From Gammaproteobacteria bacterium (lineage in GTDB: Bacteria; Pseudomonadota; Gammaproteobacteria; S144-34): a stretch of DNA of 64,000 nt. The notes beneath the pieces are model-generated. The model ran no database searches and was not told where the DNA came from. It saw only the letters and a program-made list of their open reading frames with translations. The stretch spans positions 282-64,281 of the forward strand of contig JALSJE010000067.1 in assembly GCA_026989495.1 (NCBI GenBank), given 5' to 3'. Positions 1-38,273 of this stretch are shown here, one piece after another. Positions within the stretch are counted from its first letter, which is position 1; the number at the start of each line of letters is the position of its first letter. The translations under genes and the position numbers were made by a program.

Positions 1-848
1 CCGGATGCGCCGGCGCGCGCCCCATTCCGGGCCACCCCGTCCGGCGGGGGAACGTCGGCGCGCTCCACCTGGACGTCCGCGGCGCCGGCCCGCGGCCCGG
101 GGCCCCGCCCGGGCGCGGGCGGGACCGGCCCCGCGACGGCCTCCCCTGCGGCGGCCCCGGCGGGGGGCGCCTCGGCGGCAGGCCGCGCGCCGGCATGCGG
201 CGCCGGACGCTGCGTTCCCTGCCACCACAGCGCGGCGGCGCCGGCGAGCAGGGCCGCGAGGACGATGGATGCGAGCACGGCCAGGCGGGCCGTGGGCCTC
301 AGGCGCCGCGGGCCCGCCGCCCGCCGCGGAGCAGGCGCCGTGGAAGCGGGCGGCGGCGCGAGGTCGGCCCGCCGGCAACGGAAGCGCAGCCGCACCTCGC
401 CGAGCGTGATCTCGTCGCCGTCGGCAAGGAGCGTCCGCGGCACGCGCTGGCCGTTGACCCGCACCCCGTTGAGGCTGCCGAGATCCTCGATGGCGAAGCC
501 GCCGCCCACCCGCTCGATGCGGGCATGGCGGCGGGAGACGCTGCGGTCGCGCTCGCGCCAGTGGCAGCCCTCGCCCCGGCCCAGGAGGAAAGGCTCCGAC
601 CCTTCCAGGTCGAGGCGCCGCCCGTCGGGCGCCTCGAGCCAGGCCGCGAGACCGGGCACCTCGCCCGGCGTGAGGAGCCGCGTCGGCTCGCCCGCGAGCG
701 GGGCGGACAGGGCCTCGGCCGCTTCCCGACCGGCGGCCTGGCCCAGCGCCACCGAGGCGGCGCCCAGGGGCGGCGTGGCCGCGCCCGCGGCCGGCGCCCC
801 GGCGGCATGCGGCGGCGGCGGGAGCGCGTCCTGCATCCGCGCGGCCAT
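1..848 (-). CDS. FHA domain-containing membrane protein (partial; 3' end lies beyond the window start)
   Basis: Not in the ORF track because the minus-strand frame runs off the window. Manual translation from the ATG at 848 gives MAARMQDALPPPP...EPFLLGRGEGCHWRERDRSVSRRHARIERVGGGFAIEDLGSLNGVRVNGQRVP...EITLGEVRLRF. This is a canonical FHA pattern (GR...C...D..VSRRHA, SxNG). It is followed by a predicted TM helix (LAVLASIVLAALLAGAAALWW) and an Ala/Pro-rich periplasmic tail. The ATG overlaps the stop of the downstream DUF192 gene. Confidence 0.6.
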   Translation of the reverse strand, partial: MAARMQDALPPPPHAAGAPAAGAATPPLGAASVALGQAAGREAAEALSAPLAGEPTRLLTPGEVPGLAAWLEAPDGRRLDLEGSEPFLLGRGEGCHWRERDRSVSRRHARIERVGGGFAIEDLGSLNGVRVNGQRVPRTLLADGDEITLGEVRLRFRCRRADLAPPPASTAPAPRRAAGPRRLRPTARLAVLASIVLAALLAGAAALWWQGTQRPAPHAGARPAAEAPPAGAAAGEAVAGPVPPAPGRGPGPRAGAADVQVERADVPPPDGVARNGARAGAS

Positions 849-1294
849 CAGGCCTCCTCCTCGGCAGGGGTCCTGGCATGGCCGGGCGCGTCGCCGCCCG
901 GCTGGAGCCAGCGGCGCAGCGTGCTGGCGACGCGGGCGTCGGGAGGCTCGGCGAGCCGCAGGAGCTCGCCCACCCGCAGCCCGGCCTGGTCGGCCCCGCC
1001 CGCCGGCAGCTCGAGGACGCAGCAGGCGCTTCGCGGCCCCGGCACCAGCCGGAAGGGCGGCACGTCGCGGCGGATCGCCCGCACCCGCAGGTGGCGGTCG
1101 AGGTGCACCACGTCGATGCGGTAGCGCATGCCGAAGGTGTGGACGCCGCGGCAGGGCCTGAGCAGCAGCCCCTCCCCCGCCTGCAGGCGCGGGGCGAGCA
1201 GCAGCCCCAGAAGGCGGGCGAGGAAGCGCTCGGCGAGCCGCACGCGGGGAACCCGCACGACCTCGCGCTCGTCCACGAGCTGCAGGATGCGCAT
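848..1294 (-). CDS. DUF192 family protein (COG1430-like)
   Basis: 148-aa ORF with the DUF192 hallmark ...CRGVHTFGMRYRIDVVHLD...CVLELPAGGADQAGLRVGE. Lies immediately downstream of tadC in the same operon orientation. Confidence 0.55.
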   Translation of the reverse strand: MRILQLVDEREVVRVPRVRLAERFLARLLGLLLAPRLQAGEGLLLRPCRGVHTFGMRYRIDVVHLDRHLRVRAIRRDVPPFRLVPGPRSACCVLELPAGGADQAGLRVGELLRLAEPPDARVASTLRRWLQPGGDAPGHARTPAEEEA

Positions 1295-1297
1295 GCT

Positions 1298-2218
1298 TCA
1301 GCCTCCTCCCAGCAGGGCGGCGAGGAGCCCGCTGCGTGCGAGCGCCCGCACCGCCGGCAGCATCAGGATCACGAAGGTGACCGGCATGAAGAAGCCGATC
1401 AGGGGCGCGAGCATCTTGACCGGCGCCCGCGCGGCGAGCTTCTCGGCGCGGAGGAAGCGCTCGGCGCGCTGCTGCTCGGCCTGCAGCACCAGGGCGCGGG
1501 CCATCTCGCCGCCGGTCTCCTCGGCCTGGAGCACCGCGCCCACGAAGCCCGCGACCGCGGGCACGTCCACGCGGCGCTCGAGCCGCTGCAGCGCCTCGCG
1601 CAGCACCATGCCCGCGCGCAGCTCGCGCAGCACGCGCCGCATCTCCTCGCGCACGGGCCCCTCGGGCAGGTGCGCGACGGCGCGCGCGAGCGCGCTCTGG
1701 AGGCTGAGGCCGGCGCGCATGGCGAGTGCGACCAGGTCGAGGAAGAAGGGGAAGTCCTTCTCGAAGCGGGCGCGGCGGCGCTGGATGCGGTCGCGCAGCC
1801 AGATGTCGGGGTAGAAGAAGCCCAGCGGCACGGCGAGCCAGGCGAGCGCGTAGACCGGCGCGCCCATGCCGAGGTGGACGAGGGCGGCGAGCGCGGCGGC
1901 GACGGCGGCGGTGAGCCGGCGCAGGGCGACCAGCTCCTCGGGGCGCAGGGCGTAGTCGAGGCCGGCGGCCTGCAGGCGCGCCTCGACGGCCTCGAGGCGG
2001 TCGCGGTCGGCGCGGGCGGCGACCGCCGGGGCCAGCCCACGCACCAGGGGCGCGAAGAGGCGGAAGAGCAGCGGCGGCGGCTCGCGCCAGGCCTCGGCCT
2101 CGGGGTCGGCGCGGCGGGGCCGGGGCACGAGCCGCGGCAGGGCGAGCGCGAGGCAGCCCGCGGAGAGGCCGGCGAGCAGCATCAGGGGCACGGGCGATGC
2201 GGCGAGGGGCTCAGACAT
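1298..2218 (-). CDS. tadC: Tad/Flp pilus assembly inner-membrane protein TadC (GspF/T2SSF family)
   Basis: 306 aa, polytopic membrane protein with a TadB/TadC-type T2SSF domain. Overlaps tadB by 8 nt. Confidence 0.8.
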   Translation of the reverse strand: MSEPLAASPVPLMLLAGLSAGCLALALPRLVPRPRRADPEAEAWREPPPLLFRLFAPLVRGLAPAVAARADRDRLEAVEARLQAAGLDYALRPEELVALRRLTAAVAAALAALVHLGMGAPVYALAWLAVPLGFFYPDIWLRDRIQRRRARFEKDFPFFLDLVALAMRAGLSLQSALARAVAHLPEGPVREEMRRVLRELRAGMVLREALQRLERRVDVPAVAGFVGAVLQAEETGGEMARALVLQAEQQRAERFLRAEKLAARAPVKMLAPLIGFFMPVTFVILMLPAVRALARSGLLAALLGGG

Positions 2219-3077
2219 CGATGCGCACGATCCTCCGAAGCATGAGCGCCCCGGCCACGTACATGAGCGCCAGCACGACCAGCACGGCCAGGCCGATGCG
2301 GGTGGTGTAGAGGACGGCCACGTCCTCGGGGCGGGTGAGGTGGAACCAGGCGGCGATGGCGAAGGGGAGCCCCGCCACCAGCCAGCCCTGCATGCGCCCC
2401 ATGGCGGTGAGCGCGTCGATCTTGCCCTCCAGGCGGGCGGTTTCGCGCAGGGTCTCGGCGAGGGCGTCGAGCGTGTCGGCGAGGTTGCCGCCCACGGCGC
2501 GGGCGATGCCGATCGCGGCGTTCATGAGGTCGATCTCGCGTCGCCCGAGCCGGCGCGCCATGGCCTCGAGCGCCTCCTCGAGGGGGCGGCCCAGGCGGTA
2601 CTCGGCCAGCACGAGGGCGATCTCCTGGGAGAGCGGCGCGGGGTGGCGCGCCGCGATCTGCTCGAGGCCGCGCAGGACGTTGCTGCCGCCGCGCAGGCTC
2701 CCGGCCAGCGCCGTGAGCGCGTCCGGTAGCTGGCGCACGATGCGGCGCGCCCGCCGCGCGCGCAGGCGGGCCACCACGAGGCGCGGCGCCACCAGCGCGG
2801 CGACGGCGGCCGCGAGCCCGGCCGCGGGTCCGGCCGCCCAGGCGGCGAGCGCCCCGAGGGCGAGCGCGGCGGCGGCGGTGAGCGCGAGCAGCAGGCGCGG
2901 GTCGAGATAGACGAAGGCCTCGCGCAGACCGCCCACCACCTGGCGGCGGAAGGCGGCCGAGTAGAGCGCGCCGCCGCGCAGGAGGAAGCGCGCCGCGGCC
3001 GCGAAGCCGAGCGCGCCGGCGAGCCCGCTCGCGAGCAGCAGCAGGGGGACGGCGCCCCCTTCCGCCACGCCGCTCAC
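2211..3077 (-). CDS. tadB: Tad/Flp pilus assembly inner-membrane protein TadB
   Basis: 288 aa, T2SSF-family platform protein. Its start overlaps the tadA stop by 4 nt (ATGA). Confidence 0.8.
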   Translation of the reverse strand: MSGVAEGGAVPLLLLASGLAGALGFAAAARFLLRGGALYSAAFRRQVVGGLREAFVYLDPRLLLALTAAAALALGALAAWAAGPAAGLAAAVAALVAPRLVVARLRARRARRIVRQLPDALTALAGSLRGGSNVLRGLEQIAARHPAPLSQEIALVLAEYRLGRPLEEALEAMARRLGRREIDLMNAAIGIARAVGGNLADTLDALAETLRETARLEGKIDALTAMGRMQGWLVAGLPFAIAAWFHLTRPEDVAVLYTTRIGLAVLVVLALMYVAGALMLRRIVRIDV

Positions 3078-4727: not shown

Positions 4728-6086
4728 TCAGTCCATCAGCCGGAAGCGCACCGCCTGCAGCCCCGCCCGGTCGAGCTCGCGGTAGCGGCGGATGCCCTCG
4801 CGGTTGTGCGCGCTGCGGGCGTCGACGATGCGCGGCGTGAGCAGCACGAGCAGCTCGGTCTCGTCGTCGCGGAACCTGCGCGACTTGAACAGCTCGCCGA
4901 GGACCGGCAGGTGCCCCAGCCCCGGGAGCTTGGTCACCGCCTTGCTGCGGCTGTTCCTGAGCAGACCGGAGATCACGAGCGTCTGGCCACGGCCCAGGTT
5001 GACCTCGGTGGTCGTGCGCCGTGTGAGGAAGGCCGGGAAGTCGCCCTTGGTGTTCTGCTCGTCGATGTCGCTCACTTCCACAGTGAGCTGGGTGGCGACG
5101 TAGCCGGCTGGATCGACGTCCGGCTCCACGATGAGCCGGATGCCATACTGCTTGTAGACCACGTCCTGCAGCCCCAGCCCCGTGGTCACGACGATCGGCA
5201 CCTCGCCGCCGGCAAGGAACTCGGCCTTGCCGCCGCTGCGGCAGACGAGCCGCGGGTTGGCGAGCTGACGGGCGTAGCCATGGGTCTCGAGCAGGCGCAG
5301 CCGGCTCTCGATGAGCGAATCCCAGCCGAAGAACGACTTCGTCGTCTCGTAGCCGAGCGGCGCGGTCACGCCGAAGGCGCCACCGGGAGGCGGGCGGAAG
5401 GCGGCGTTGCCCTGGAAGGTGCCGATGATGCCGAAACGCGGCCCGGCGTAGTCGCCAGCTACCCGGGCGCCGTTCCGCAGCCACTCGATACCGATCGTGC
5501 GCGACAGGTTGCGGCTGACCTCGAGCACCCGGGCGTCGAACTCGACCATGGCGCGCAGCGGGACGCGCGGCGGGGCGACCTCGTTCACCACCGTGCCCGC
5601 GTGCTCGCGCGCCAGCGTCTCGATGCGCGCGTGGTCCTCCTCGCGCAGGGCCGCGCCCTCGAGGATCACCTTGCCGCCGGCCACGCGCGCGCGCACGCCC
5701 TCGATGTCGCCGATGCGCGCGCGCACCTCCTCCAGCACGGCCTCCGGCGCGGGCGGCGTGACCTCGACGAGGTAGGCCGCCCGCTCCCTGCCCCGCACCC
5801 ACACGCGCAGGTCCGTGAGGCCGGGCTTGCGGCCGATGAGGAGCACCTGGCCGGCGTCCTCGAGCACCTTGACGTCCAGCACGTGCCCGTCGCCCACGGC
5901 CACGCGGTCCACGCCGGGGTGGCGGAGCAGGCGCGTCTGCCCGGCGGGCAGGGCGATGCGGCCGGCATAGCGCGGCTGCGCCTGGCCGGGCGGCGCCGCG
6001 GCCGCGGCGGGCGGCGCGGCGGCCCGGACCGGCATGGCCAGCGCCGCGGCGAGCAGGCAGGCGGCCAGCGGGGCCGGGGCGCGCAT
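4728..6086 (-). CDS. cpaC: Flp pilus secretin CpaC/RcpA
   Basis: 452 aa with a signal peptide, an N-terminal BON-like region and a C-terminal secretin domain (...VISGLLRNSRSKAVTKLPGLGHLPVLGELFKSR...). Confidence 0.85.
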   Translation of the reverse strand: MRAPAPLAACLLAAALAMPVRAAAPPAAAAAPPGQAQPRYAGRIALPAGQTRLLRHPGVDRVAVGDGHVLDVKVLEDAGQVLLIGRKPGLTDLRVWVRGRERAAYLVEVTPPAPEAVLEEVRARIGDIEGVRARVAGGKVILEGAALREEDHARIETLAREHAGTVVNEVAPPRVPLRAMVEFDARVLEVSRNLSRTIGIEWLRNGARVAGDYAGPRFGIIGTFQGNAAFRPPPGGAFGVTAPLGYETTKSFFGWDSLIESRLRLLETHGYARQLANPRLVCRSGGKAEFLAGGEVPIVVTTGLGLQDVVYKQYGIRLIVEPDVDPAGYVATQLTVEVSDIDEQNTKGDFPAFLTRRTTTEVNLGRGQTLVISGLLRNSRSKAVTKLPGLGHLPVLGELFKSRRFRDDETELLVLLTPRIVDARSAHNREGIRRYRELDRAGLQAVRFRLMD

Positions 6087-6859
6087 CAGTCCATCCCTCC
6101 GCGAATGATCTCGACCTCCCCGCGGGCACGCACACGCGCGCGGCCGCCGAGCAGGGTCTCGCGCGTGACGGCGCCGAGGCGCAGCGGCGCGTCGTCGGCC
6201 GGGGCGCGCAGCATGGCCGTGAGCTTGCCGATCTCGCGCGCGTGCACGATGCGGGCGGCCTCCTCGGGGGTGACCAGCACGGTGATGGTGCGGTAGCCCT
6301 CGGGCTGCGCGTGGCCGTCGCCGGTGTCGGCGCCCGTGGCCGCCACCTGGACGTCGCGCAGCAGGGGCAGGGTGACGGGGCGGTCGCCGTCCTGGAGGGT
6401 GACGAGGAGGTCGATGCGGTCGCCGGGGCCGAGGAGCCCGGAGAAGGACGAGGTCTCGTCCACGGGGATCGTGAGCGCGCGCCGCCCCTCGCGCACCCGC
6501 GCCGAGAAGCCGCTGGCGCGGCTGCGCGAGAGATGGGCGTGCAGCACGGTCTCGCCGCGCCGGAGCGGAAACAGCAGGCGCCGGCCCTCGACCTCGGCGA
6601 AGGCCTCGGGGCGCATGGCGTCGTGGTGCACGAAGGTGGCGGGCACCTCGCGCACGGCGACGTTGCCCACGCCGAGCGGCGTGCCGGCGGGCAGGTCTTC
6701 GTTGGCCACGAGCACACGCACGGGCCGGCGCCCGGCGTCGAGGCGGGCGCGGTAGGCCTCGATCTCGCCGGCGACATAGCGCTCGGCGAGGAAGGCGGCC
6801 GCCGTGCCCGAGACCAGGGCGCCCGCCACGAGCAGGAGCGTGATGCGGCTCGTCCTCAT
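6086..6859 (-). CDS. cpaB: Flp pilus assembly protein CpaB/RcpC
   Basis: 257 aa. N-terminal TM anchor followed by SAF/CpaB-like domains. Sits in the conserved position between flp and cpaC. Confidence 0.8.
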   Translation of the reverse strand: MRTSRITLLLVAGALVSGTAAAFLAERYVAGEIEAYRARLDAGRRPVRVLVANEDLPAGTPLGVGNVAVREVPATFVHHDAMRPEAFAEVEGRRLLFPLRRGETVLHAHLSRSRASGFSARVREGRRALTIPVDETSSFSGLLGPGDRIDLLVTLQDGDRPVTLPLLRDVQVAATGADTGDGHAQPEGYRTITVLVTPEEAARIVHAREIGKLTAMLRAPADDAPLRLGAVTRETLLGGRARVRARGEVEIIRGGMD

Positions 6860-6880: not shown

Positions 6881-7054
6881 TCAGGGCCTGGCGAGCAGCG
6901 TGAGGAAGCGGCCGAGGTGGCCGCCGAGCGCGTCCACCACGGCCGCGCCCGCCGCGACGGCACCGACGAGCGCGGCGGTCGCGACCAGGTAATGCGCCAG
7001 CGCCGCGCCCCGCGGGCGCGGGCGGCTGCGTGAGCGGTCCGTCTTCGCGTCCAT
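6881..7054 (-). CDS. flp: Flp-family type IVb prepilin (paralog 2; short start chosen)
   Basis: MDAKTDRSRSRPRPRG|AALAHYLVATAALVGAVAAGAAVVDALGGHLGRFLTLLARP. A basic leader ends in G, then four residues, then HY (a variant of the Flp G/XXXXEY motif), then a hydrophobic helix. A GGAGGA RBS sits 6 nt upstream of the ATG at 7054. The track ORF 6881..7081 would use a longer start. Confidence 0.6.
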   Translation of the reverse strand: MDAKTDRSRSRPRPRGAALAHYLVATAALVGAVAAGAAVVDALGGHLGRFLTLLARP

Positions 7055-7067
7055 GGCGTCCTCCCCC

Positions 7068-7775
7068 TCATCGCACGACATGGATCAGCGCGAGGCTCCC
7101 CCGCCGGTGCGGTGCGACGCTGACCTGGCAGAGGCTGCGGCCCCGCTGGAAGGCCTGCTGCACGGCGCCGCGCGCGCGCGCGAGCGAATGCGGCTGCACG
7201 GTCCAGCCCGCCCCGGCCAGCCGCGCGCGGATGCGCTCCAGGGTTGCCTCGGCCCCGTAGGGGCTCTGCAGGGTGAGCGACCAGGCCCGGCGCGGGCCGT
7301 CGAGGCTGTCGAGCCGGTGCAGCACGCGCAGGCCCGCCGGCAGCGGGATGCCGGGCGTCCGCCGGGGCCGCACCGCGTCCGGCCGCAGGCTGATCGTGAG
7401 CACGCCCTCGGCGCCGCGCGCGGTGTCGCGCACGCGCACCGTGCGGTAGTGGCGCCCGTCGCGGTGGCCGATCACGCGCCACGGGCCCTGCCGCTGGCGC
7501 ACGACCTCGCCGCGGCCCAGGCGCGACCAGAGGCGCTCGTACCAGGCGAGCACCGCCTGGGCCGGGGCGTCGGTGCGGAACAGGCGCGCGCTCATGGGCA
7601 GCCCGTTCCAGGCCATGCGCTCGGCGATCCAGCGCGTCTCCATGCCGGGCATGACGCGCATCACCGGCAGCTCGACGGCGAGCGGGTCCTCGAGGGCGGG
7701 CGCGGCCCGAGCGGCGAGCGCCGCCAGCGCGAGCGCGAGGAGAAGGGATCCGCGAGGCCGGCGCGCGGGGCTCAT
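7068..7775 (-). CDS. secreted hypothetical protein of the tad pseudopilin block
   Basis: 235 aa, in-frame part of track ORF 7068..8552 starting at MSPARRPRGSLLLALALAALAARAAP (signal peptide). Its ATG overlaps the tadE-like stop (ATGA). No recognisable domain. Confidence 0.45.
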   Translation of the reverse strand: MSPARRPRGSLLLALALAALAARAAPALEDPLAVELPVMRVMPGMETRWIAERMAWNGLPMSARLFRTDAPAQAVLAWYERLWSRLGRGEVVRQRQGPWRVIGHRDGRHYRTVRVRDTARGAEGVLTISLRPDAVRPRRTPGIPLPAGLRVLHRLDSLDGPRRAWSLTLQSPYGAEATLERIRARLAGAGWTVQPHSLARARGAVQQAFQRGRSLCQVSVAPHRRGSLALIHVVR

Positions 7776-8563
7776 TCCGTCACCTCGTAGCCTTCGGGCA
7801 GCGCCTGCGCCGGCACGGCCGGCTCGAGCGGCAGGGCGTCCCTCCCTTCCTTGTAGAGCGGGAAGGCGGCGATGACCTTCGCCGGCTTGACGAGCGTCTC
7901 GATCCGCTTCGCCAGCGTCGCCCGGCCCACGCGCCGGCGGAAGGCGGCCTCGCGCGCCGCCGACCAGGCGTCGCCCGCGACCGCGGCCCCCGCCTCGAGC
8001 GTGGCCCCGCCGAAGTCCGGCAGCTCCGGATGGGCCCGCAGGCCCACGCGCAGGCGCGATCCGGCGCGGCCCCGGGCGCCGAGCCCGAGCGGGCGGACGG
8101 GGAAAGGAACGCCGCCCCCGCGGGCGACGGCGTCCACCATCTTCCCCGCGAGGCCGCCGCCGCGAAGGCGCGTCTCGTCCAGGTCCTGCGCGGCGCGCGC
8201 GCCGGGGCTGCCCGCCACCACGTCGCGGCCTGCATGATCCAGCCACACGGGGCTCGCGGTCGGGCCCGCCGTGAGCGGCGCCGACGGATGGCCGAGGACG
8301 GCGGTCTCGACCAGGCGCCGGATCTCGCCGTCGCCGCGCACCGCCGGCCCCTCCCCGAGGCTCCAGTCGGAGGCCCGCTCGGCCCACACCGTCCGTTCCC
8401 ACGCGACGGCGCGCGCGGCCTCGATCGTCTTGTGCTCGGCGTCGAGCCAGGCGCCCAGGAGCGGGACGAGAATCAGGAGCAGCACGAAGAGCCCGCCGGC
8501 CGCCACCAGCTCGGCCAGCGCCTGGCCCGCGCAGCCGCGCCGTCCCCGCCATGCGCCGCTCAC
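7772..8563 (-). CDS. tadE: TadE/TadF-like pseudopilin
   Basis: In-frame part of ORF 7772..8815 starting at GTG 8563 (a GTGA overlap with the upstream stop). Its N-terminus, RRGCAG|QALAELVAAGGLFVLLLILVPLLGAW, matches the TadE-like class III signal (G, four residues, E, hydrophobic helix). Confidence 0.55.
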   Translation of the reverse strand: MSGAWRGRRGCAGQALAELVAAGGLFVLLLILVPLLGAWLDAEHKTIEAARAVAWERTVWAERASDWSLGEGPAVRGDGEIRRLVETAVLGHPSAPLTAGPTASPVWLDHAGRDVVAGSPGARAAQDLDETRLRGGGLAGKMVDAVARGGGVPFPVRPLGLGARGRAGSRLRVGLRAHPELPDFGGATLEAGAAVAGDAWSAAREAAFRRRVGRATLAKRIETLVKPAKVIAAFPLYKEGRDALPLEPAVPAQALPEGYEVTE

Positions 8564-9327
8564 GGGCCGGCCCTCCCCTTGCGGGCGTCCACGGGCTTCG
8601 CGCCGGGCGGCGGCCGCATCCCCTTCGTGTCCACGCAGGCGCCCTCCTCCACGCGCTCGGCGCGCATCTCGTAGGGCCTGTGCGAGGTGGCGCCGGCTCC
8701 CACCTGCTCGATGCGCATGACCAGCGCGACCTGCTGACCGCCCAGCTCGGTCATGCACATCCGGTGGCGCAGGCTGTATGATGCGTCTCCTGTGCTGCCG
8801 GCGAACCACCGGCACGGACGCCCCGCCACCGTGGACACATGCCCGGTCTCTTCGCTATCGAACATCCGGGACGGATCGAGGCCCATCGCGCCGATGGCGG
8901 CGAGCAGCTCCGGCGAGGCCGGGGGATAGCGCTTGACTTCCCCGCTCGCCCCGTAGAAGGCGACGCGCGAGCCGTCGGGCATCCGCCATTCCGTGTAGGA
9001 CTGGGACACGAGCCGCACCTTGGGCCACATCGTGAAGCCCGAGCCCATCCATTCGATCCTGGTCGTGAGCGCCTCGAGACGCAGACGCTCGCGGCCCTCC
9101 ATGAGGACGAGCTCCTGGGTGGCCGGGGTGGACTCGAGGGTCTTGAGGAGCTTCCGGTCCTTGAAGAGGAACGCCAGGAGGGTCTCCGTGGGGCTGAAGA
9201 GCACCGGCTGGGTGCCCGTGTAGGTCACGCGGACCGCCGTGCAGCGCACCTCGGCCCGCGCGGGCGCGAGGGCGGCCGCGGCGAGGGCCGCGAAGGCCAG
9301 GAGCAATACCCTGCGGGCCGCGCTCAT
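8560..9327 (-). CDS. secreted hypothetical protein (tad locus)
   Basis: 255-aa frame reading MSAARRVLLLAFAALAAAALAPARAEVRC..., hidden inside the 806-aa shadow ORF 8560..10980. Signal peptide present. Its ATG at 9327 overlaps the tadG-like stop. No recognisable domain. Confidence 0.45.
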   Translation of the reverse strand: MSAARRVLLLAFAALAAAALAPARAEVRCTAVRVTYTGTQPVLFSPTETLLAFLFKDRKLLKTLESTPATQELVLMEGRERLRLEALTTRIEWMGSGFTMWPKVRLVSQSYTEWRMPDGSRVAFYGASGEVKRYPPASPELLAAIGAMGLDPSRMFDSEETGHVSTVAGRPCRWFAGSTGDASYSLRHRMCMTELGGQQVALVMRIEQVGAGATSHRPYEMRAERVEEGACVDTKGMRPPPGAKPVDARKGRAGP

Positions 9328-10580
9328 CGGGCGAGCCTCACCTCCCAGAAGGGGTTGAACAGGTTGGCGTGCTCGCCCTTGCCCGGCAGGGCGAACAGCG
9401 CGCGGTCGGGCCGGCGGTGGTAGACCTGCGCCCGGGCGAGGGCGCGCAGCGGCGCCGGCGCCGCGCCCGGCACGAGCGCACCCGTCTGCAGGCGGCCCGA
9501 AGGCGGCCGCGATGCGAGCGCGCTCACCCACAGCCGCCGGTCGCCGGGACCGTCCCGGAGCGCGTGGTAGCCCGGCACGCCGGCATAGGCCGGATGCAGG
9601 CCGCGGGCCGAAGCCGAGCCCCGGGCGACCGTGCTCCAGCCCGACCAGCCCTTGAAGCACTTGTCCCACCTCCACCAGCTCACCTGCAGCTCGTCGCTCG
9701 CCCGCCAGTCCATCAGGTCGGCGCCGCCCTGCCGCGTGCGGCCCACCTTGCGCACCCGCACCACGAAGGGCACCTTGACCTTCCAGCCGCGCTCGCCCTC
9801 GATCCACCGGCGCGAGCGGTCGAGGGAGGCCCAGCTCAGGGCGGCGATCCGCCCCCCGTCGCCGGCCGGGCCGTAGCGGCGCACGAAGCCCGCGAGCCGC
9901 GCGCCCTCGGCCGCGAGCGAGGCCGAGATCACGGCGCCCTCGGGGCCCTCCTTCGCGAGCTTCGCGAGCTCGGCGGGGCGGTTGACGTCGATGGCCGGGT
10001 CGTGGCGCCGGGCGATCCCGCGCATGAGGCTGCGCAGGGTGAAGGGCTGCAGCGTGGCGCGGGATGCATACTGCGCCATCAGGTAGAGCCGGTTGAGGCC
10101 GTCCACGGCCAAGAGCGCCATGCTCGCCAGATACTTCGTCACCCCATAGCTTGCCGACACCACCTTGCGCGCCGTGCTGGTGGCGGCGTTGACGCCGGGG
10201 ATCCAGGCCGTGAGGAAGGCGACCCTGTCCACCGAGTCGCGCACGTAGCCGAGCCAGGAGACGTAGCTGACCAGGTGGCCTGCGGCGACGTGGTTGGCCA
10301 CCATGGCGCGGTTGGTGTAGGCCATGAAGTTGAGCTGGCGCGCGACCCACAGGCCGCCGCTCCAGGCGGCCGCGTCGGCGGCGTCCTGGAGCTGGGCGCG
10401 CTCGGCGGTGGCCTGGCCGACGTTGTACATCACGAGCGCGCCCGCAAGCCCCGCGCCCAGCAGCGCCAGCGCCAGCACGAGCACTTGCCCGCGCTGGAGG
10501 CGGCAGGCGGGCGGCGGGACCGGTCGGGCCGACGGGGCGCGTTCGGGCATGGCGCGAAACCCTGGCGACGTCCCTGTCAC
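9324..10580 (-). CDS. tadG: TadG-like Tad-domain pilus assembly protein
   Basis: 418 aa. N-terminus QRGQVLVLALALLGAGLAGALVMYNVGQATAERAQLQDAADAAAW is typical of the TadE/G-like N-terminal domain (PF13400-like) that precedes a large periplasmic region. Confidence 0.55.
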   Translation of the reverse strand: MTGTSPGFRAMPERAPSARPVPPPACRLQRGQVLVLALALLGAGLAGALVMYNVGQATAERAQLQDAADAAAWSGGLWVARQLNFMAYTNRAMVANHVAAGHLVSYVSWLGYVRDSVDRVAFLTAWIPGVNAATSTARKVVSASYGVTKYLASMALLAVDGLNRLYLMAQYASRATLQPFTLRSLMRGIARRHDPAIDVNRPAELAKLAKEGPEGAVISASLAAEGARLAGFVRRYGPAGDGGRIAALSWASLDRSRRWIEGERGWKVKVPFVVRVRKVGRTRQGGADLMDWRASDELQVSWWRWDKCFKGWSGWSTVARGSASARGLHPAYAGVPGYHALRDGPGDRRLWVSALASRPPSGRLQTGALVPGAAPAPLRALARAQVYHRRPDRALFALPGKGEHANLFNPFWEVRLAR

Positions 10581-10618
10581 CTCGTACCCTCCCTGTGGAA
10601 CCCTCCTTCTCCGGACCC

Positions 10619-10888
10619 CTACTGCGAGAAGTTCTGCAGGGTCTTCGCCGTGCCGGCGTCGGACTTGGCGTTGCCGGCCGAGGTCTGGGCCGCCGTGGTC
10701 TCCGTCTTGGCCGTGGAGGTGTCGCCGGCGAGCTTGAGGGCCATGGCCGCCATCTGGTGGCGGATCGCGTCGCCGAAGAAGCCGGCCACGGCCACGGTGG
10801 CGACGGCCACCAGCGCGGTGATGACGAGGTACTCGGACATGCCCTGGCCGCGGATGCGGCGGCGATGGGTGCTGGGCTGCTTCCGCAT
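10619..10888 (-). CDS. flp: Flp-family type IVb prepilin (paralog 1) with T/A-rich C-terminal tail
   Basis: MRKQPSTHRRRIRG|QGMSEYLVITALVAVATVAVAGFFGDAIRHQ..., which fits G/XXXXEY. An AGGAGGA RBS lies upstream of the ATG at 10888. The C-terminus TSTAKTETTAAQTSAGNAKSDAGTAKTLQNFSQ is low-complexity. First gene of the minus-strand tad operon. Confidence 0.65.
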   Translation of the reverse strand: MRKQPSTHRRRIRGQGMSEYLVITALVAVATVAVAGFFGDAIRHQMAAMALKLAGDTSTAKTETTAAQTSAGNAKSDAGTAKTLQNFSQ

Positions 10889-11099
10889 GGGGCTTCCTCC
10901 TCTGCTGCCTGCGGCGCGGTGCGGACCGCGCCTTCGTCCATACGGGACGCGAAAGCTACCCAAGGCGTGCCGATGGGCAATTCGAAATTTTTTATGCGCC
11001 ACTCGAAAAACCGGTGTACCAGAAATGAGACACTCGGCCCCGATCACGCGATTCGAGGCATGTGCTGCGGAACCTCAACATCCATTTGCAACTCATTGC

Positions 11100-11260
11100 T
11101 GGAAAGCTTCTTTCAGCGCCACACCCCTGCCGCAGCCGAGCGCGACGTGACGTCAGGCGTCACTTTTTTCATGACGCTCAGCGTCAGTTTTGAAGGGCTT
11201 CGAAGCCACTGAGTGACGCCGCACGTCACCCCCTTTCGGCCCCCTCCCACGGGACGAGCC
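11100..11260. promoter_or_regulatory. Divergent promoter region (flp operon / lnt-like gene) with clustered GTGACG/CGTCAC palindromes
   Basis: A lower-GC 350-bp intergenic region. Contains cgacGTGACGTCAggCGTCACtttttTCATGACGCTCAGCGTCAg ... TGAGTGACGccgcaCGTCACc, and the palindrome GAAAGCTTCTTTC. Confidence 0.3.
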
Positions 11261-11332
11261 GACGAACGGCATTGCCGCGCGTGCCTGCGCGGTGCTACAT
11301 AGCCGCGCGCGCAGCGACGGAGCGCCTGCCGC

Positions 11333-13342: not shown

Positions 13343-14146
13343 ATGGAGGAATGGGTCTGCTTCAAGACCGGGCGCTACCGGCTGGAGCCGCTGGCGCGAG
13401 GGGGCGTGGCCGACCTCGCCCTGGGCTATCATGAAAGCGACGGGTCGGCCGTCACCTTCAAGTTCCTCAAGCCCCAGCTCGCCCGGGTGCCGCACCTGGT
13501 GGGGCAGCTCCAGCTCGAGTACGCGGTGATGCTGGGCTCCCGGCCCGGGCTCCCCCAGGCGGTCGAATGCGGGATCTACGGAGGACGGCCCTACCTGGCA
13601 TACCGCTACGTCCGCGGCGTCTCCGTCCGGCACCTGCTGGATGCCCTGCACCGCGCCGGCCGCGTGCCCTGCGAGTCCACGGCGCGGCGCATCGTGCATG
13701 GGGCCGCCTGCGCGCTGAACGCGCTGCATCGCGGCCGCCCGCCCGTGGCCCACGGCGACCTCAGCCCGGAAAACGTCATCGTGGGCCGGCGCATGGGGGT
13801 GGCGCTGGTGGACCTGGGATGCGCACGGCGGCTGGACCGCCCGACCGCCGATGCGCCGCTGCTGATGGGCAAGCCGCGCTATCTCTCGCCCGAGCAGGCG
13901 CGCGGCGAGCCCTGGGGCGCCCCGAGCGACGTCTATCAGCTCGGGCTGCTGCTCTACGAGATCGTCACGGGCGAGCCGCTCATCGCGCCCTGGCTGGAGG
14001 TGCCGAGCCCGGCCGAGGCGGCCGCGCCCTCCCTCGAGGCGCTCTCGGCGCTGCCTCCCGCGCTGCGCCTGCTGTGCCGGCGCATGCTCGACCCCGATCC
14101 CGCCGCCCGTCCGGGCGCGGCCGCCGTGGCGCGCGCGCTGCGCTGA
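13343..14146 (+). CDS. Hanks-type serine/threonine protein kinase (kinase domain only)
   Basis: 267 aa with a Gly-rich loop (RGGVADLALGY), an AVTFKFLK lysine, the catalytic loop HGDLSPENVIV, DLG, and YLSPEQ (APE-like). No TM segment or sensor domain. Confidence 0.75.
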   Translation: MEEWVCFKTGRYRLEPLARGGVADLALGYHESDGSAVTFKFLKPQLARVPHLVGQLQLEYAVMLGSRPGLPQAVECGIYGGRPYLAYRYVRGVSVRHLLDALHRAGRVPCESTARRIVHGAACALNALHRGRPPVAHGDLSPENVIVGRRMGVALVDLGCARRLDRPTADAPLLMGKPRYLSPEQARGEPWGAPSDVYQLGLLLYEIVTGEPLIAPWLEVPSPAEAAAPSLEALSALPPALRLLCRRMLDPDPAARPGAAAVARALR

Positions 14147-14853: not shown

Positions 14854-15963
14854 ATGGAGCCGGGGGTTGAAGGCGCGCGGCTGCATGTCGAGCGCGGCGA
14901 TGGCGCCACGCGGCTGCGTGCGCAGGGCCGCTGGACCGTGGACGGCATCGCCGCGCTGGCGCAGGCCCCGGCGCCGGCGCTGCCCGACCGGGGCGAGCTC
15001 GTGCTGGACGGCGGCGCGGTCGAGGCGCTGGACACCGCCGGCGCCTGGCTGCTGTGGCGTCTCATCGGCGGACGGGCGGCGCGGCTCGAGGGCTGGCGCC
15101 CCGGGCAGGCTGCGCTCCTGGAGCTCGTGCGGCGGCATGGCACGGCCTCGGCCCCGCCGCCGGCGCGGCCCGGCCGGCTCGCAAGGCTCGGCGCGCGCGC
15201 GGTACGGCAGGCGCGCGAGGCGGTCTCCCTGGTCTCCTTCGTCGGCGCGGTCACGCTGGAGCTCGCGCGGGCGCTCGCGCGCCCGCGCCGCCTGCGCCTG
15301 CGGCTCGCGCTGGAGGAGGTGCAGCATGCGGGCGTGGAGGCGCTGCCCATCGTCGGGCTGCTCGCCTTCCTCATGGGCATCGTCATCGCCTACCAGGGCG
15401 GCGTGCAGCTGCGCAACTACGGCGCCAACATCTTCGTCGCCGACCTGGTGGGCCTGTCCGTGCTGCGCGAGATCGCCCCCCTCATCACGGCCATCCTGCT
15501 CGCCGGACGCAGCGGATCGGCCTACACGGCCCAGATCGGCACCATGCAGGTGACCGAGGAGATCGACGCCCTGCGCACGCTGGGGCTCTCGCCGCTGGAG
15601 ATCCTGGTGGTGCCGAAGGTGCTGGGGCTGATGCTGGCGCTGCCGCTGCTCACCGTCTATGCCGGGGCGCTGGGCGTGGGCGGAGGCATGATCATGGCCC
15701 AGTGGGTGCTCGAGGTGAGCCCGGCCGCCTTCCTGGAGCGCTTCGAGCAGGCCATCGGCCTCGCCTCCTATCTGGTGGGCGTGGGCAAGGCCCCGGTGTT
15801 CGCGGCCATCATCGCCCTCGTGGGCTGCCACCGCGGCTTCCTCGCCGGCGCCAGCGCCGACAGCGTCGGGCGCCAGACCACCCTCAGCGTGGTGCAGGCG
15901 ATCTTCCTCATCATCGTGGCGGACGCGGCCTTCTCCGTCCTGTTCAGCCGGCTGGGGATATGA
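14854..15963 (+). CDS. mlaE: MlaE-family ABC transporter permease with N-terminal STAS (MlaB-like) domain fusion
   Basis: N-terminal roughly 110 aa (RLHVERGDGATRLRAQGRWTVDGIAAL...LDGGAVEALDTAGAWLLW) resembles a STAS domain. The C-terminal part is MlaE/YrbE permease. The ATG at 14854 was chosen over the upstream Cys-rich start. Confidence 0.75.
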   Translation: MEPGVEGARLHVERGDGATRLRAQGRWTVDGIAALAQAPAPALPDRGELVLDGGAVEALDTAGAWLLWRLIGGRAARLEGWRPGQAALLELVRRHGTASAPPPARPGRLARLGARAVRQAREAVSLVSFVGAVTLELARALARPRRLRLRLALEEVQHAGVEALPIVGLLAFLMGIVIAYQGGVQLRNYGANIFVADLVGLSVLREIAPLITAILLAGRSGSAYTAQIGTMQVTEEIDALRTLGLSPLEILVVPKVLGLMLALPLLTVYAGALGVGGGMIMAQWVLEVSPAAFLERFEQAIGLASYLVGVGKAPVFAAIIALVGCHRGFLAGASADSVGRQTTLSVVQAIFLIIVADAAFSVLFSRLGI

Positions 15964-16748
15964 CGGGCGCAGGCGGCGAGGTCGTGGTCTCCCTGCGCGG
16001 CATCGAGACGCGCTTCGGCAGCCAGCGCGTGCACGCCGGCATCGACCTCGACGTGCGCCGCGGCGAGATCTTCGCGCTCGTGGGCGGAAGCGGCTCCGGC
16101 AAGACCACGCTGCTGCGCGTGATGCTTCTGCTCCACCGTCCCGCGGCCGGTCGGGTGACCCTGCTGGGGCGCGAGGCCGCGCGCATCGGCGGGCACGAGC
16201 TGCCCGCGCTGCGCCGGCGCATGGGCGTGCTCTTCCAGCACGACGCCCTCTTCAGCGGCCTCAGCCTGCTGGACAACGTGCTCGTGCCGCTGCGCGAGCA
16301 CACGCGCCTGCCCCGGGGCTTGATGCGGGAGATCGCCCTGCTCAAGCTTGCGCTCGTGGGCCTGGGGCCCGAAACTGGCCCGCGGCTGCCCGAGGCGCTC
16401 AGCGGCGGCATGCGCAAGCGCGGCGCGCTCGCGCGCGCGCTCGCGCTGGACCCGGAGCTGCTGTTCCTGGACGAGCCGACGGCGGGCCTCGATCCCGTGA
16501 CGGCCGCGGGCTTCGACGAGCTCATCCTGCGGCTGCGCGACAGCCTCGGACTGACGGTGGTGCTGGTGACCCACGACCTCGACACGCTCATGCGCATCGC
16601 CGACCGCGTGGCGCTGCTCGCCGACGGCAGGGTCGCTGCCGTCGGGACCCTGGACGAGGTCCTCGCGAGCGAGGACCCGGCCGCGCGCCGCTTCTTCCAC
16701 GGCCCCCGGGGGCTGGCCGCACGGGAGCGGGCATGGAGCCGCGCCTGA
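15960..16748 (+). CDS. mlaF: MlaF-family ABC transporter ATP-binding protein
   Basis: Walker A GGSGSGKTT, signature LSGGMRKR, Walker B LLFLDEPTAGLD. Its start overlaps the mlaE stop (ATGA). Confidence 0.8.
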   Translation: MTGAGGEVVVSLRGIETRFGSQRVHAGIDLDVRRGEIFALVGGSGSGKTTLLRVMLLLHRPAAGRVTLLGREAARIGGHELPALRRRMGVLFQHDALFSGLSLLDNVLVPLREHTRLPRGLMREIALLKLALVGLGPETGPRLPEALSGGMRKRGALARALALDPELLFLDEPTAGLDPVTAAGFDELILRLRDSLGLTVVLVTHDLDTLMRIADRVALLADGRVAAVGTLDEVLASEDPAARRFFHGPRGLAARERAWSRA

Positions 16749-17674
16749 GCTACACGGCGGTCGGCCTCTTCGTGCTGCTGCTGGCGGCCGCCTTCGTCGG
16801 CGGCGTGCTGTGGCTGTCGTCGGGCACGCTGCGGCGCGACCACGTGATCTATCACATCTACATGTCCGAGTCCGTCTCGGGCCTGAACGTGGACGCCCCG
16901 GTCAAGTACCGCGGCGTGGACGTGGGCCGGGTCCGGGCCATCGAGCTGGTGCCGGACGGCCCGGTGCAGGTGCGCATCGTGGCCGCGATCCGGCGCGACG
17001 TGCCCATCAAGGCCGACACCGTGGCCACCCTGCGCGTGCAGGGGCTGACCGGCATCGCCTACGTGGAGCTCGAGGGGGGGAGCCGCGAGGCTCCGCCCCT
17101 CGAGGCCCTGCCGGGACAGCCGGCACCCGTGATCCCGAGCCGTCCCTCCTTCCTCGCCCGGCTCGACACGCATCTCGACGAGCTCATCGGCAACCTCAAC
17201 CAGGCCGCGCACGGCGTCGCGCGCCTGCTCGACGAGCGAACCCGTGCCCACCTGCGCCATACGCTCGCCAACCTGGAGCGCCTCACGGCCTCGCTCAACG
17301 AGAGCGTGGCGCGCCTCGACCGCGCGCTGGAGGCGGCCGCCCGCACCGCCGACGCCGCCGCGGACGTGGCCGCGCGCGCGGGGCCGGCGCTCGCCCGCAT
17401 CGAGGCCGCGGCCGCCGCGCTCGAGCGCATGGCCGATCGCCTGGGGCGGACCGGCGAGCGCCTGGGCGACGACTACGGGCGGCTCGCCGGCCATCTGCAG
17501 ACGGCCGCCGAGGAGACCCTGCCCGAGGTGCAGCGCGCGATCGCCGATCTGCGCGAGGCGGCCGCCAGCCTGCGGCACTTCGGGCGCGTGCTGGAGCAGG
17601 ACCCGCGGGTGCTGCTGTTCGGCCTGCCCGAGGCCACCCCGGGTCCCGGCGAGGAGGAGGTCCAGCAGCGATGA
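16733..17674 (+). CDS. mlaD: MlaD/MCE-domain protein
   Basis: 313 aa. N-terminal TM anchor followed by an MCE domain (...YRGVDVGRVRAIEL...), then a coiled-coil C-terminal region. Confidence 0.75.
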   Translation: MEPRLSYTAVGLFVLLLAAAFVGGVLWLSSGTLRRDHVIYHIYMSESVSGLNVDAPVKYRGVDVGRVRAIELVPDGPVQVRIVAAIRRDVPIKADTVATLRVQGLTGIAYVELEGGSREAPPLEALPGQPAPVIPSRPSFLARLDTHLDELIGNLNQAAHGVARLLDERTRAHLRHTLANLERLTASLNESVARLDRALEAAARTADAAADVAARAGPALARIEAAAAALERMADRLGRTGERLGDDYGRLAGHLQTAAEETLPEVQRAIADLREAAASLRHFGRVLEQDPRVLLFGLPEATPGPGEEEVQQR

Positions 17675-18444
17675 GGCGCATGCGCGCAAGGTTCTCCGCG
17701 GTGTCCGCCGTGGCACCGGCCTTCCTGGCGCTCCTGCTGCTGGGGGCCTGCACGGGCCTGTCCCAGCGGGCGGTGCATGGAGAGCCGGGCGCGCCCGCGC
17801 GCTTCCTCCTCGCGCCAGCCGTCCCGGCCGAGCCGGAGCGGCCCGGCGCGGGACCCGCCCTCGAGGTCGCGCGCGTGCGGGCGGCAGCAGGCTACGGGAC
17901 CGACGCCATGCTCTACCTGCGCCGCCCGCGCCGGCTCGAGGCCTACGCGCGGGGACGCTGGATGGAGGCGCCCGCGCGCATGCTGCAGCCTGCGCTGGTG
18001 GACGCCCTGGCGGGCTCGGGCCTGTTCCCGGTCGTGGTGCCCGGGCCGGCCTCGGTGCGCGTGCCTCTGCGCCTGGAGACCACGCTGCTGGCCCTGCACC
18101 ACGACCTCACGGGGGCCGTGCCCCAGGTGCGGATCGTGCTGCGGGTGATGCTGGTGGACCGGCACGCGCGGCGCGTGCTCGCCGCCCGGCGCATCGCCGC
18201 CGCCGCCCCGGCCCCGGCCAACGGGGCGGGCGCGATGGCCGACGGCGCCGCCCGCGCCCTCGAGCGGGCGCTCGCGGCGGTGGTGGCCTTCTGCCGCGAG
18301 GTCCTGGCTCAGCCGAAGGCGGTGGCCGACGCGGCGGGCGACACTGCCGCCAGCGCCTCCAGCACCACCTCCGGGTCGGAAGGCCGGCGGCGCGCCTCCT
18401 CCGAGAGCATGCGACGCCAGCGCGCCGCCCCCGGCAGACCCTGA
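17671..18444 (+). CDS. ABC-transport auxiliary lipoprotein (DUF330/COG3218-like)
   Basis: Lipoprotein signal (LALLLLGAC) and the conserved position after the MCE gene. The low-complexity C-terminal tail overlaps the dusA 3' end by about 135 nt on the opposite strand. Confidence 0.55.
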   Translation: MRRMRARFSAVSAVAPAFLALLLLGACTGLSQRAVHGEPGAPARFLLAPAVPAEPERPGAGPALEVARVRAAAGYGTDAMLYLRRPRRLEAYARGRWMEAPARMLQPALVDALAGSGLFPVVVPGPASVRVPLRLETTLLALHHDLTGAVPQVRIVLRVMLVDRHARRVLAARRIAAAAPAPANGAGAMADGAARALERALAAVVAFCREVLAQPKAVADAAGDTAASASSTTSGSEGRRRASSESMRRQRAAPGRP

Positions 18445-19481: not shown

Positions 19482-19730
19482 GACGGCTCCAGCGGCGTGC
19501 ACGGTGGACGGTGAACAGTGTACGGTAGCGGACCGTGCGCGGTCGCCCGGGTGCCGCCGTCCAGCGAGTTCCGCCGCCGGCTGAGCCGACCTGCCCCCTG
19601 CAGGGGCCTCGGCGATGCCATGCACCAGCACCCGCCGGGACCTCGTGCCGGCAAGCCGGGAGCGTATCGGTGGGAGGCGGCACGGAATGGGGCGCTTGGG
19701 CAGCGGCCGCGCACGGGAGAAAGAGAAGAA

Positions 19731-19892
19731 AGATCTGAAAAATTCGATTTTTCAGACCTTTCCCGCGGCCAGGGACGGCCGCGGGACGGTTCATGCACAG
19801 GGAAGTGCATGACGACAACCGAAAAATCGAAATGGACCGCGAAGCGCCATAGCGCTGATCGATCCGCGCAGCGGATTGATCAGAGTTTCCAG
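19731..19892 (+). repeat. 165-bp multi-hairpin intergenic repeat, copy A
   Basis: Carries CTGAAAAATtCGATTTTTCAG, CCGCGGCCagggacGGCCGCGG, CATGCACagggaagGTGCATG and CTGATCGATCCGCgcaGCGGATTGATCAG. Nearly identical to the copies at 26529, 27829 and (inverted) 55222. Confidence 0.8.
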
Positions 19893-19910
19893 AAAGGGGA
19901 GGCTGAAGGC

Positions 19911-30917: not shown

Positions 30918-30918
30918 C

Positions 30919-31753: not shown

Positions 31754-31756
31754 GGC

Positions 31757-33362: not shown

Positions 33363-33381
33363 ACGAGGCCCCTTCTCCCGC

Positions 33382-34392: not shown

Positions 34393-34396
34393 CGCC

Positions 34397-36745: not shown

Positions 36746-36803
36746 CTTCGGTGGCCGGGTTTCGTGCGGCAGACACGCGCTCTGGAACTCGGTGGCCGTG
36801 CGG

Positions 36804-36976: not shown

Positions 36977-36998
36977 GTCCGCGCACATCCGTCGCAGC

Positions 36999-38222: not shown

Positions 38223-38273
38223 GCCGCCACCCACACCGCCCGGCGGAAAGCGGGGAACGGCGCGCTTCCGTCC

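Follow-up and report, generated by a model that had tools for sequence, protein, structure and literature searches.

The window analyzed here, the whole 64,000-nucleotide stretch of a contig from an uncultured organism labeled Gammaproteobacteria bacterium (G+C content 74.5%), contains a 12-gene operon on the minus strand in which the first and sixth genes encode small prepilin-like proteins, Flp1 and Flp2. The second of these lacks Glu5, the glutamate that type IV pilins carry at the fifth position after the cleavage site, and its origin and likely function are the main subject of this work. CpaB/RcpC, a secretin, TadA, TadB and TadC are all encoded together with Flp1 and Flp2, which is the gene content of a tad locus, and the region is most likely that half of a Tad (type IVc) pilus operon which encodes the pilins and the tip proteins.

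Both open reading frames (ORFs) are present where the initial annotation had placed them, at 10888-10619 (89 amino acids, aa) and 7054-6881 (57 aa) on the minus strand, with exact translations, and public gene calls from independent pipelines give identical boundaries for both. Flp1 reads MRKQPSTHRRRIRG/QGMSEYLVITALVAVATVAV... and ends in DTSTAKTETTAAQTSAGNAKSDAGTAKTLQNFSQ, and Flp2 reads MDAKTDRSRSRPRPRG/AALAHYLVATAALVGAV..., the slash marking the putative cleavage site. The strong ribosome-binding sites ascribed to the two genes are borne out by Shine-Dalgarno sequences 4-5 nt before the ATG (AGAGGAGGAAGcccc-ATG for Flp1 and GGGGGAGGAcgcc-ATG for Flp2). The class III signal of Flp1, RIRG/QGMSEYLVITALVAVATVAVAGFF, has a basic leader, Gly-1, Glu5, Tyr6 and about 20 hydrophobic residues, and Flp2 has all of these elements except Glu5, where the reported HY in place of EY is indeed found (His at position 5, codon CAT). 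When all six frames of the 64 kb were scanned with a relaxed class III pattern (a stop-free leader with Met, G-x4-[EHQ]-[YF] and 18 hydrophobic or small residues), Flp1 and Flp2 were the only matches, and fifty codon-block shuffles gave none.

The operon runs in the order Flp1, TadG-like, p255, TadE-like p263, p235, Flp2, CpaB, secretin, FHA-ATPase, TadB, TadC and DUF192, and its features are as follows.

10889..11332, minus strand: upstream intergenic region, likely promoter or regulatory; drop in G+C and three palindromes
10619..10888, minus strand: Flp1, 89-aa long Flp-type prepilin; 14-aa leader, G/QGMSEY, hydrophobic alpha1, Thr/Ala-rich C-terminal segment
9324..10550, minus strand: TadG-like protein of 408 aa, a large minor pilin or pseudopilin; PF13400 Tad (E=1.5e-7), N-terminus RG/QVLVL without Glu5
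8560..9327, minus strand: p255, Sec-type signal-peptide-like N-terminus, function unassigned; no Pfam, NCBIfam or PDB match
7772..8563, minus strand: p263, TadE-like pseudopilin with class III signal RGCAG/QALAELVAAGGLFVLLLIL; N-terminus G/QALAEL with Glu5
7068..7775, minus strand: p235, Sec-type signal-peptide-like N-terminus, function unassigned; no Pfam or PDB match
6881..7054, minus strand: Flp2, 57-aa Flp-like prepilin without Glu5; 16-aa leader, G/AALAHY, single helix, C-terminal GGHLGRFLxLLxxP
6086..6859, minus strand: CpaB/RcpC; TIGR03177 (E=1.2e-44), PF16976 and SAF
4728..6086, minus strand: CpaC/RcpA-type secretin, 452 aa; PF00263 (E=1.8e-37), PF13629
3074..4717, minus strand: TadA/CpaF-type ATPase with N-terminal FHA domain, 547 aa; PF00437 (E=3.9e-66), PF00498 (E=1.3e-15, residues 24-81)
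2211..3077, minus strand: TadB-like platform protein; PF00482 T2SSF
1298..2218, minus strand: TadC-like platform protein; PF00482 T2SSF
848..1294, minus strand: DUF192 protein; PF02643, conserved in the related locus L015
1..848, minus strand: 5' part of the gene of a 521-aa FHA-domain protein (window edge), completed on an overlapping contig

The short Flp family and the loss of Glu5

The gene for Flp2 behaves as a selected coding sequence. The ratio of nonsynonymous to synonymous substitution rates (dN/dS) is 0.17-0.23 at a dS of 0.2-0.8 over five loci, which corresponds to purifying selection, and the codon for His5 varies synonymously between CAT and CAC, the single Gln variant being CAG. 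That Flp2 is a chance ORF of a high-GC genome is thus scarcely credible, and the conservation data already refute it. Spurious long ORFs are abundant in the window and Flp2 matches no curated model, but the G+C content of its third codon positions (0.94), its strong Shine-Dalgarno sequence, a dN/dS of about 0.2 at dS up to 0.8, some ten orthologues with 27 more distant family members, and its calling by independent pipelines all speak for a genuine gene.

The first homologue search with Flp2 returned only seven close relatives (67-83% identical), all of which show R-G-[AV]-A-L-A-[HQ]-Y-L-V and the C-terminal ALGGHLGRFL..L..P. The closest Flp2-bearing relatives are metagenome-assembled genomes (MAGs) labeled 'Gammaproteobacteria bacterium', and two of the seven stand in such MAGs with a gene order identical to that of the window. 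Scans of metagenomes and genomes for further His5 relatives added four loci only, all with His5. The clade with His5 or Gln5 is narrow and high-GC, with about ten sequences across all collections searched.

The connection to proteins that retain Glu5 comes from synteny in more distant relatives, which were identified through the Flp1 family. In loci L006 and L010 the flanking proteins are 40-41% (TadG-like), 28-32% (p263), 29-32% (p235) and 44-45% (CpaB) identical to those of the window, and the exact position of Flp2, between p235 and cpaB, is occupied in L006 by a 56-aa ORF (...QQG/WGTSEYLAVLLGLMAVW...HHDEFSWVLMLPL, motif G/WGTSEY) and in L010 by a 51-aa ORF (...QRG/WGATEYIAVLLSMMVVW...HHDEFSWALMMPL, motif G/WGATEY). 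A third ORF of this kind, 60 aa in length (...QLG/MSMTEYVVMGGALVISF...YDEYMWTLAMPL, motif G/MSMTEY), directly follows the p263 homologue of L008, a Methylococcales MAG. L008/L009 share homologues of Flp1, the TadG-like protein (39%) and p263 (27%) with the window, and no homologue of p235 or CpaB was found in that locus. The small ORFs of L006, L010 and L008 have a C-terminal [FW]xLxxxP in common.

The TadG-like protein is 39-41% identical to the second gene product of related operons, and the p263 homologues have G/xxxxE N-termini in all of them. The p235 protein is conserved and always stands immediately upstream of the small Flp; its homologues are 29-32% identical in L006 and L010 and 22% in L011, and in L006 and L010 its stop overlaps the start of the small Flp. 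In L011 (5311-5736) the position of Flp2 holds a pilin-like variant of larger size (141 aa), which begins MQG/QAMIEYVVILAAL and has hardly any leader. Locus L013 was considered as a case without the upstream module and rejected, as BLAST shows its gene labeled 'Hist_deacetyl' to be a p263 homologue.

Once synteny had supplied members with Glu5, a mixed profile retrieved the wider family of small Flp proteins, which comprises 35 members of 44-66 aa. All but one of them can be aligned with no gap between Gly-1 and the C-terminal Pro, the exception being the Methylococcales protein P0035 with a one-residue insertion. Y22, L54 and P57 (Flp2 numbering) are invariant and G16, L29, H46 and F50 nearly so, and the features conserved across the family are Gly-1, Tyr6 and the motif F/W-x-L-x-x-P at the C-terminus. 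At position 5, 27 members have Glu, 7 have His and one has Gln. A profile of the His5 clade aligned to the Glu5 members with hhalign gives P=5.5e-4 over the full 48 columns. The gene directly precedes cpaB in every locus that carries cpaB, always follows minor-pilin genes, and is called 'hypothetical' wherever a source names it. With the family alignment as input, AlphaFold2 predicts one continuous helix for Flp2 (residues 15-55; mean predicted local distance difference test score (pLDDT) 81.6, core about 97).

Since synteny, the family alignment and the profile comparison all link Flp2 to Glu5-bearing proteins, Flp2 is, as judged from sequence and gene order, a derived representative of a family of short Flp-like proteins that carries no annotation. 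Glu5 is ancestral in this family, and His or Gln is confined to a narrow high-GC clade. The description of Flp1 and Flp2 as paralogs is overstated. The two belong to separate conserved families whose detectable similarity is limited to the prepilin N-terminus: hhalign gives a probability of 14.5% for the Flp2 clade against the Flp1 family, and for the Glu5 members against the Flp1 family a probability of 82% (P=1e-5) over 23 residues that span the leader, the cleavage site and the start of the helix. The best PDB match of the small Flp profile is the M13/fd major coat protein (ATEYIGYAWAMVVVIVGA..., E about 0.25), which we take to be a chance similarity of short membrane helices; it pairs two kinds of short filament-forming helix at a level expected by chance.

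Flp1 and its C-terminal segment

Flp1 is the first gene in all related loci, and its homologues, 44-49% identical, all share GQGM[ST]EY. The motif G/QGMSEY had been called atypical, but the same motif occurs in the homologue P0018, which carries a precomputed Pfam Flp_Fap (PF04964) domain, and 6 of the 12 family members match Flp_Fap, weakly (best E=2.8e-5). Some sources annotate the homologues as 'Flp pilus assembly pilin Flp'. The best PDB sequence match of the family profile is the Caulobacter Tad pilin 8u1k (E=0.15), with Glu5-Tyr6 in register. The leaders of both Flp1 and Flp2 had also been described as unusually basic and Arg-rich. Their Arg richness follows from base composition, since the G+C content of the window is high, and in relatives of lower G+C the leaders are rich in Lys instead (for example MKKIIKKQLG). 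Flp1, at 89 aa, is longer than the typical small Flp (about 50-80 aa) and shorter than an accepted Flp, KilP (97 aa). By sequence comparison, then, Flp1 is a member of a family of long Flp pilins with an ordinary cleavage motif, and its role is most likely that of the major pilin.

The Thr/Ala-rich tail of Flp1 exists as described, but it is not peculiar to this protein. It is present in all 12 family members and is about as conserved as the helix, in a position-specific manner (AAQTSAG at its core, Ala at several positions, and L-x-N-[FY]-x-Q) and without repeats. AlphaFold2 predicts a helix at residues 17-55, a break and a weak helix at 62-87. In KilP, the 97-aa major Flp of Myxococcus, a C-terminal alpha2 has been modeled on the filament surface (Herrou 2025, PMC12075869), and by analogy the tail of Flp1 looks more like such an exposed alpha2 than like a glycosylation or adhesin extension. 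A tail that serves as substrate for O-glycosylation or as an adhesin-like extension would add to this explanation and would not compete with it, and we regard it as unlikely. Thr and Ser account for 12 of the 34 residues of the tail, which is placed outside the hydrophobic helix, and post-translational modification of a Flp pilin is reported for Aggregatibacter, with phosphorylcholine on Flp1 (PMC6182317). Against this, the proteins of the operon and its continuation that were scanned include no glycosyltransferase or oligosaccharyltransferase family in Pfam, many of the tail Thr residues are replaced by Gln, Ser or Gly in homologues, and the segment is non-repetitive, weakly predicted to be helical and conserved by position like the rest of the protein.

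Proposed roles of the two proteins

We consider it rather probable that Flp1 is the major pilin and that Flp2 is a minor Flp, either close to the tip or an adapter, similar to KilK/KilO in the Kil system of Myxococcus xanthus. We infer the cleavage of both proteins, their division into major and minor pilin and the filament position of Flp2 as follows. A TadV-type prepilin peptidase, encoded elsewhere, would cut Flp1 behind Gly14 to give a mature protein of 75 residues, the site being assumed, and Flp2 would be cut behind Gly16, likewise an assumed site, to give a single helix of 41 residues. Mature Flp1 would polymerize via its hydrophobic alpha1 (roughly precursor residues 17-55) and form the shaft, and its conserved C-terminal segment, rich in Thr, Ala and Lys, would be exposed at the surface of the filament in the way modeled for KilP. 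The TadG-like protein, without Glu5, and p263, with Glu5, would form the tip. Flp2, present in low copy number at or just under the tip, would join these two tip proteins to the Flp1 shaft or prime the assembly of the shaft. This is modeled on KilO (59 aa) and KilK, Flps of Myxococcus that are encoded beside TadE/F/G-like tip genes, are expressed at a low level and, as genetic work has shown, are required to prime KilP polymerization and to couple tips to the shaft (PMC12075869). The earlier suggestion that Flp2 is a non-canonical or minor pilin fits this assignment, as Flp2 is the positional orthologue of short Flp-like proteins with G/xxxxEY and is predicted to form a single helix of the size of a Tad pilin.

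The loss of Glu5 would be tolerable because Tyr6, invariant in Flp2 and its relatives, would supply the contact that keeps the register, and because tip-capping subunits lack Glu5. In the cryo-electron microscopy structure of the Caulobacter Tad filament, Glu5 points outward and makes no subunit contact, and the register is maintained by Tyr6, which is placed beneath the N-terminus of the following subunit (PMC10710030). The tip complexes of type IV filaments are capped by a subunit without Glu5 (Pelicic 2023, PMC10191384).

The main rival takes Flp2 to be a pilin-derived accessory protein or regulator that stays in the inner membrane without polymerizing, associated with the CpaB/secretin alignment complex or with the platform, so that the loss of Glu5 would mark the loss of pilin function in this clade. 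The replacement of Glu5 by His or Gln together with the loss of the acidic residues of HHDEF in a single clade would agree with this, as would the lack of a Pfam or NCBIfam pilin match, the constant position directly upstream of cpaB and the lack of a peptidase gene nearby. However, Gly-1, Tyr6, the length from Gly to the C-terminus and the C-terminal motif are kept under purifying selection, as continued pilin recognition and packing would give; Glu5 makes no packing contact in the solved Tad filament; and pilins without Glu5 are a known class of tip subunit. We therefore hold this alternative to be possible but doubtful.

It is more improbable still that Flp1 and Flp2 are alternative major pilins that one machine assembles into two filaments, the Flp2 fiber being thinner and tail-less. 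More than one Flp is encoded in several tad loci. This precedent, the strong Shine-Dalgarno sequences on both genes and the size of mature Flp2 (41 aa), near that of the mature Caulobacter Tad pilin (45 aa), are what such a reading can draw upon. It does not sit well with the fact that Flp1 and Flp2 come from different conserved families and that each family keeps its own place in the operon, that Flp2 is the sixth gene, beside the tip and assembly genes and translationally coupled to p235 in relatives, and that major pilins without Glu5 are not known.

As for the adapter role that we prefer for Flp2, the tip-capping minor pilins offer a useful comparison. GspK of type II secretion is an example of a tip-capping minor pilin without Glu5. 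Flp2 resembles this class in its non-acidic position 5, in the location of its gene among minor-pilin genes and in its presumed role at the start of assembly, and the TadG-like protein is non-acidic at position 5 (Leu) as well. Tip-cap pilins are large and have globular domains, whereas Flp2 is a bare helix of 41 residues. The TadG-like protein is the more obvious cap, and Flp2 may be sub-terminal.

A number of observations weigh against the assignment of Flp1 and Flp2 as major and adapter pilin. The alignment to PF04964 that had been suggested as a check succeeded in part: Flp1 gives a weak match (17 bits, E=0.005), as do half of its homologues, but Flp2 gives none, and both remain below the gathering threshold of 32.2 bits. 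None of the 8 members of the Flp2 clade and none of the 27 Glu5-type members match Flp_Fap, Flp2 has no other Pfam or NCBIfam match, and no NCBIfam model reaches its cutoff for either protein. An exhaustive HMMER search of 1.84 billion representatives with the Flp2-clade profile found nothing outside the cluster of Flp2 itself (a repetitive protein of 2479 aa that matched was judged spurious), and the His5 clade is tied to the Glu5 members by a modest profile similarity (hhalign probability 30%), a link that leans heavily on synteny. The His5 clade has also lost the acidic Asp-Glu of the family's HHDEF motif, so that Flp2 may have changed its role in this clade and not merely tolerated a substitution. 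The calculated net charge of the mature small Flp goes from about -3 in the family to about +1 in the His5 clade. The model of Flp1 has low confidence (pLDDT 58). No prepilin peptidase gene of the Peptidase_A24 family turned up among the operon genes, the other scanned ORFs of the window or the 2.9 kb that lie past its edge, which leaves the processing of Flp1 and Flp2 without local support. Finally, the resemblance of Flp1 and Flp2 to the Kil pilins consists of length, helical prediction and gene neighborhood, and is drawn from published descriptions only. Foldseek searches of the PDB with the Flp1 and Flp2 models gave no match, as expected for bare helices.

Compared with canonical Flp pilins (PF04964; Caulobacter PilA and Aggregatibacter Flp1), both proteins share the basic leader, Gly-1, the hydrophobic helix, the small size and the setting in a tad locus, and Flp1 has Glu5-Tyr6 where Flp2 has Tyr6 only. 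They differ in position 7, which is Leu here and Gly in the Flp motif, in the 75 aa and polar tail of mature Flp1 against the 45 aa of Caulobacter PilA, and in His5 of Flp2.

The likeness to Kil extends to the machinery. An FHA-fused ATPase and further FHA proteins have been singled out as Kil features (Seef 2021, PMC8460266), and the present operon has both, with an ATPase that carries an N-terminal FHA domain and an extra FHA protein of 521 aa. In both systems the major Flp is unusually long, with a second, C-terminal segment (89 aa here, 97 aa in KilP), and a second, fully helical Flp of about 57-59 aa stands beside TadE/TadG-like minor pilin genes. TadZ/CpaE, the lack of which from this operon is a further likeness, was found neither among the operon genes nor in the other window ORFs scanned. 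The toxin domains of related operons described below would fit a contact-killing role, as an indirect parallel. The differences are also substantial. The host is gammaproteobacterial by MAG labels, and not a member of Myxococcota, Bdellovibrionales or Bradymonadales, while the published view confines Kil to predatory Myxococcales, Bdellovibrionales and Bradymonadales (PMC12075869). There is one operon here in place of several clusters. The interval between the TadG-like gene and Flp2 includes p255 and p235, which have signal-peptide-like and not pilin N-termini. Flp2 lacks Glu5, whereas KilK and KilO are described with a conserved cleavage motif. As regards the tip, which in Kil is a heterotrimer of KilL/M/N (TadE/F/G-like), the operon has one TadG-like (PF13400) gene and one TadE-like gene (p263).

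Surroundings of the operon and toxin fusions in its relatives

The 444-nt region upstream of Flp1 falls to 55-58% G+C, compared with 74.5% for the window. It contains three TGACG-N5-CGTCA palindromes in the divergent intergenic region (11148-11162, 11172-11186 and 11214-11228), which are all of the matches in the window, where 0.09 would be expected. The palindromes were not found in more distant related loci and are probably operators for a dimeric regulator. Scans for a sigma-70 promoter or a terminator upstream of Flp1 gave nothing convincing and no sigma-70 consensus, and no sigma-54 promoter was seen by eye in the same sequence. An attenuator hairpin between Flp1 and the TadG-like gene was considered and dropped (z=+1.16 versus shuffles).

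The p263 protein itself has no Pfam match, and PDB sequence searches with p235, p255, p263 and the TadG-like protein found none. The p255 gene appears to have been inserted in the His5 clade alone and coincides with a local dip in G+C (66-72%); a 258-aa counterpart is present in L005, no homologue was found in L006, L010, L008 or L011, and p255 occurs only in the clade of Flp2. On the overlapping contig k141_96930 of the same organism (locus L019; window coordinate = 9076 minus L019 coordinate) the operon goes on with a TPR protein, a PP2C phosphatase and a TadE-family gene. Several phospho-signaling genes surround the operon, namely those of the FHA-fused ATPase, of the 521-aa FHA protein and the PP2C phosphatase (window 1-848, minus strand, and L019:8228-11153) and of a Ser/Thr protein kinase at 13343-14146 on the plus strand of the window, about 2.5 kb upstream of Flp1. 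This set recalls the type VI secretion switch that is based on threonine phosphorylation, and also the FHA-rich clusters of Kil. Unrelated to the operon is a [NiFe]-hydrogenase subunit and maturation cluster at 28787-39327 (minus strand) with large and small subunit-like proteins, HypF, HypD and HypB/CobW-like proteins.

Two related operons encode TadE pseudopilins fused to polymorphic toxins. In L006 a 752-aa fusion lies between the secretin and the ATPase (15306-17564), with the N-terminus RHRG/AAIVEAVIALPILL (RG/AAIVEAV..., PF07811 TadE) followed by PT-HINT and Tox-REase-5, and the gene after it has a weak, sub-threshold match to the Imm52 immunity family. In L010 a fusion of more than 1,597 aa follows the secretin (15507-20297) and combines G/AAIIETA... 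and TadE with DUF6531 and Rhs repeats; a Tle1-like lipase is given in the precomputed annotation, and L010 ends inside the fusion gene, so that the ATPase is seen only in L006. In the organism of the window, a TadE-family ORF (RIRG/ASVVELLVALPVVLLL...ARIRILNPT; L019:11200-11934, about 2.1 kb beyond the window start and downstream of the PP2C gene) is cut by the contig end, and this fragment is homologous to the N-terminal domain of the L006 and L010 fusions. We found no description of TadE-toxin fusions in the literature searched.

These fusions suggest that this operon family may be a toxin-delivering pilus. In its full form, a Kil-like toxin-delivering Tad pilus outside predatory lineages would have a Flp1 shaft, tip TadE pilins that are fused to toxins in relatives, and a short Flp that docks the cargo. 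The FHA, PP2C and Ser/Thr-kinase signaling would trigger firing on contact, like the threonine-phosphorylation pathway of type VI secretion, and the His5 clade would represent a re-tuned adapter. We put this forward as a tentative proposal that is more likely wrong than right. If it were true, toxins fused to pilins would add a new class of effectors to those of type IV filaments and would hint at the kind of toxin to seek in Myxococcus, whose Kil toxin had yet to be identified in 2021.

Glu5 has been treated as a near-universal signature of bacterial type IV pilins, and here a Flp-like protein under selection has His or Gln in its place. With Gly-1 and Tyr6 fixed, this natural variation lends support to the structural finding that Tad filaments rely on Tyr6 and not on a Glu5 salt bridge, and equally to the view that subunits near the tip can do without Glu5. 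Because no Pfam or NCBIfam model matches the short Flp family and its members are labeled 'hypothetical', a conserved component, possibly the counterpart of the KilK/KilO adapters, escapes Tad annotation pipelines. The FHA-ATPase, the PP2C and FHA genes and the TadE-toxin fusions of relatives suggest that Kil-like contact weapons may reach beyond the predatory lineages.

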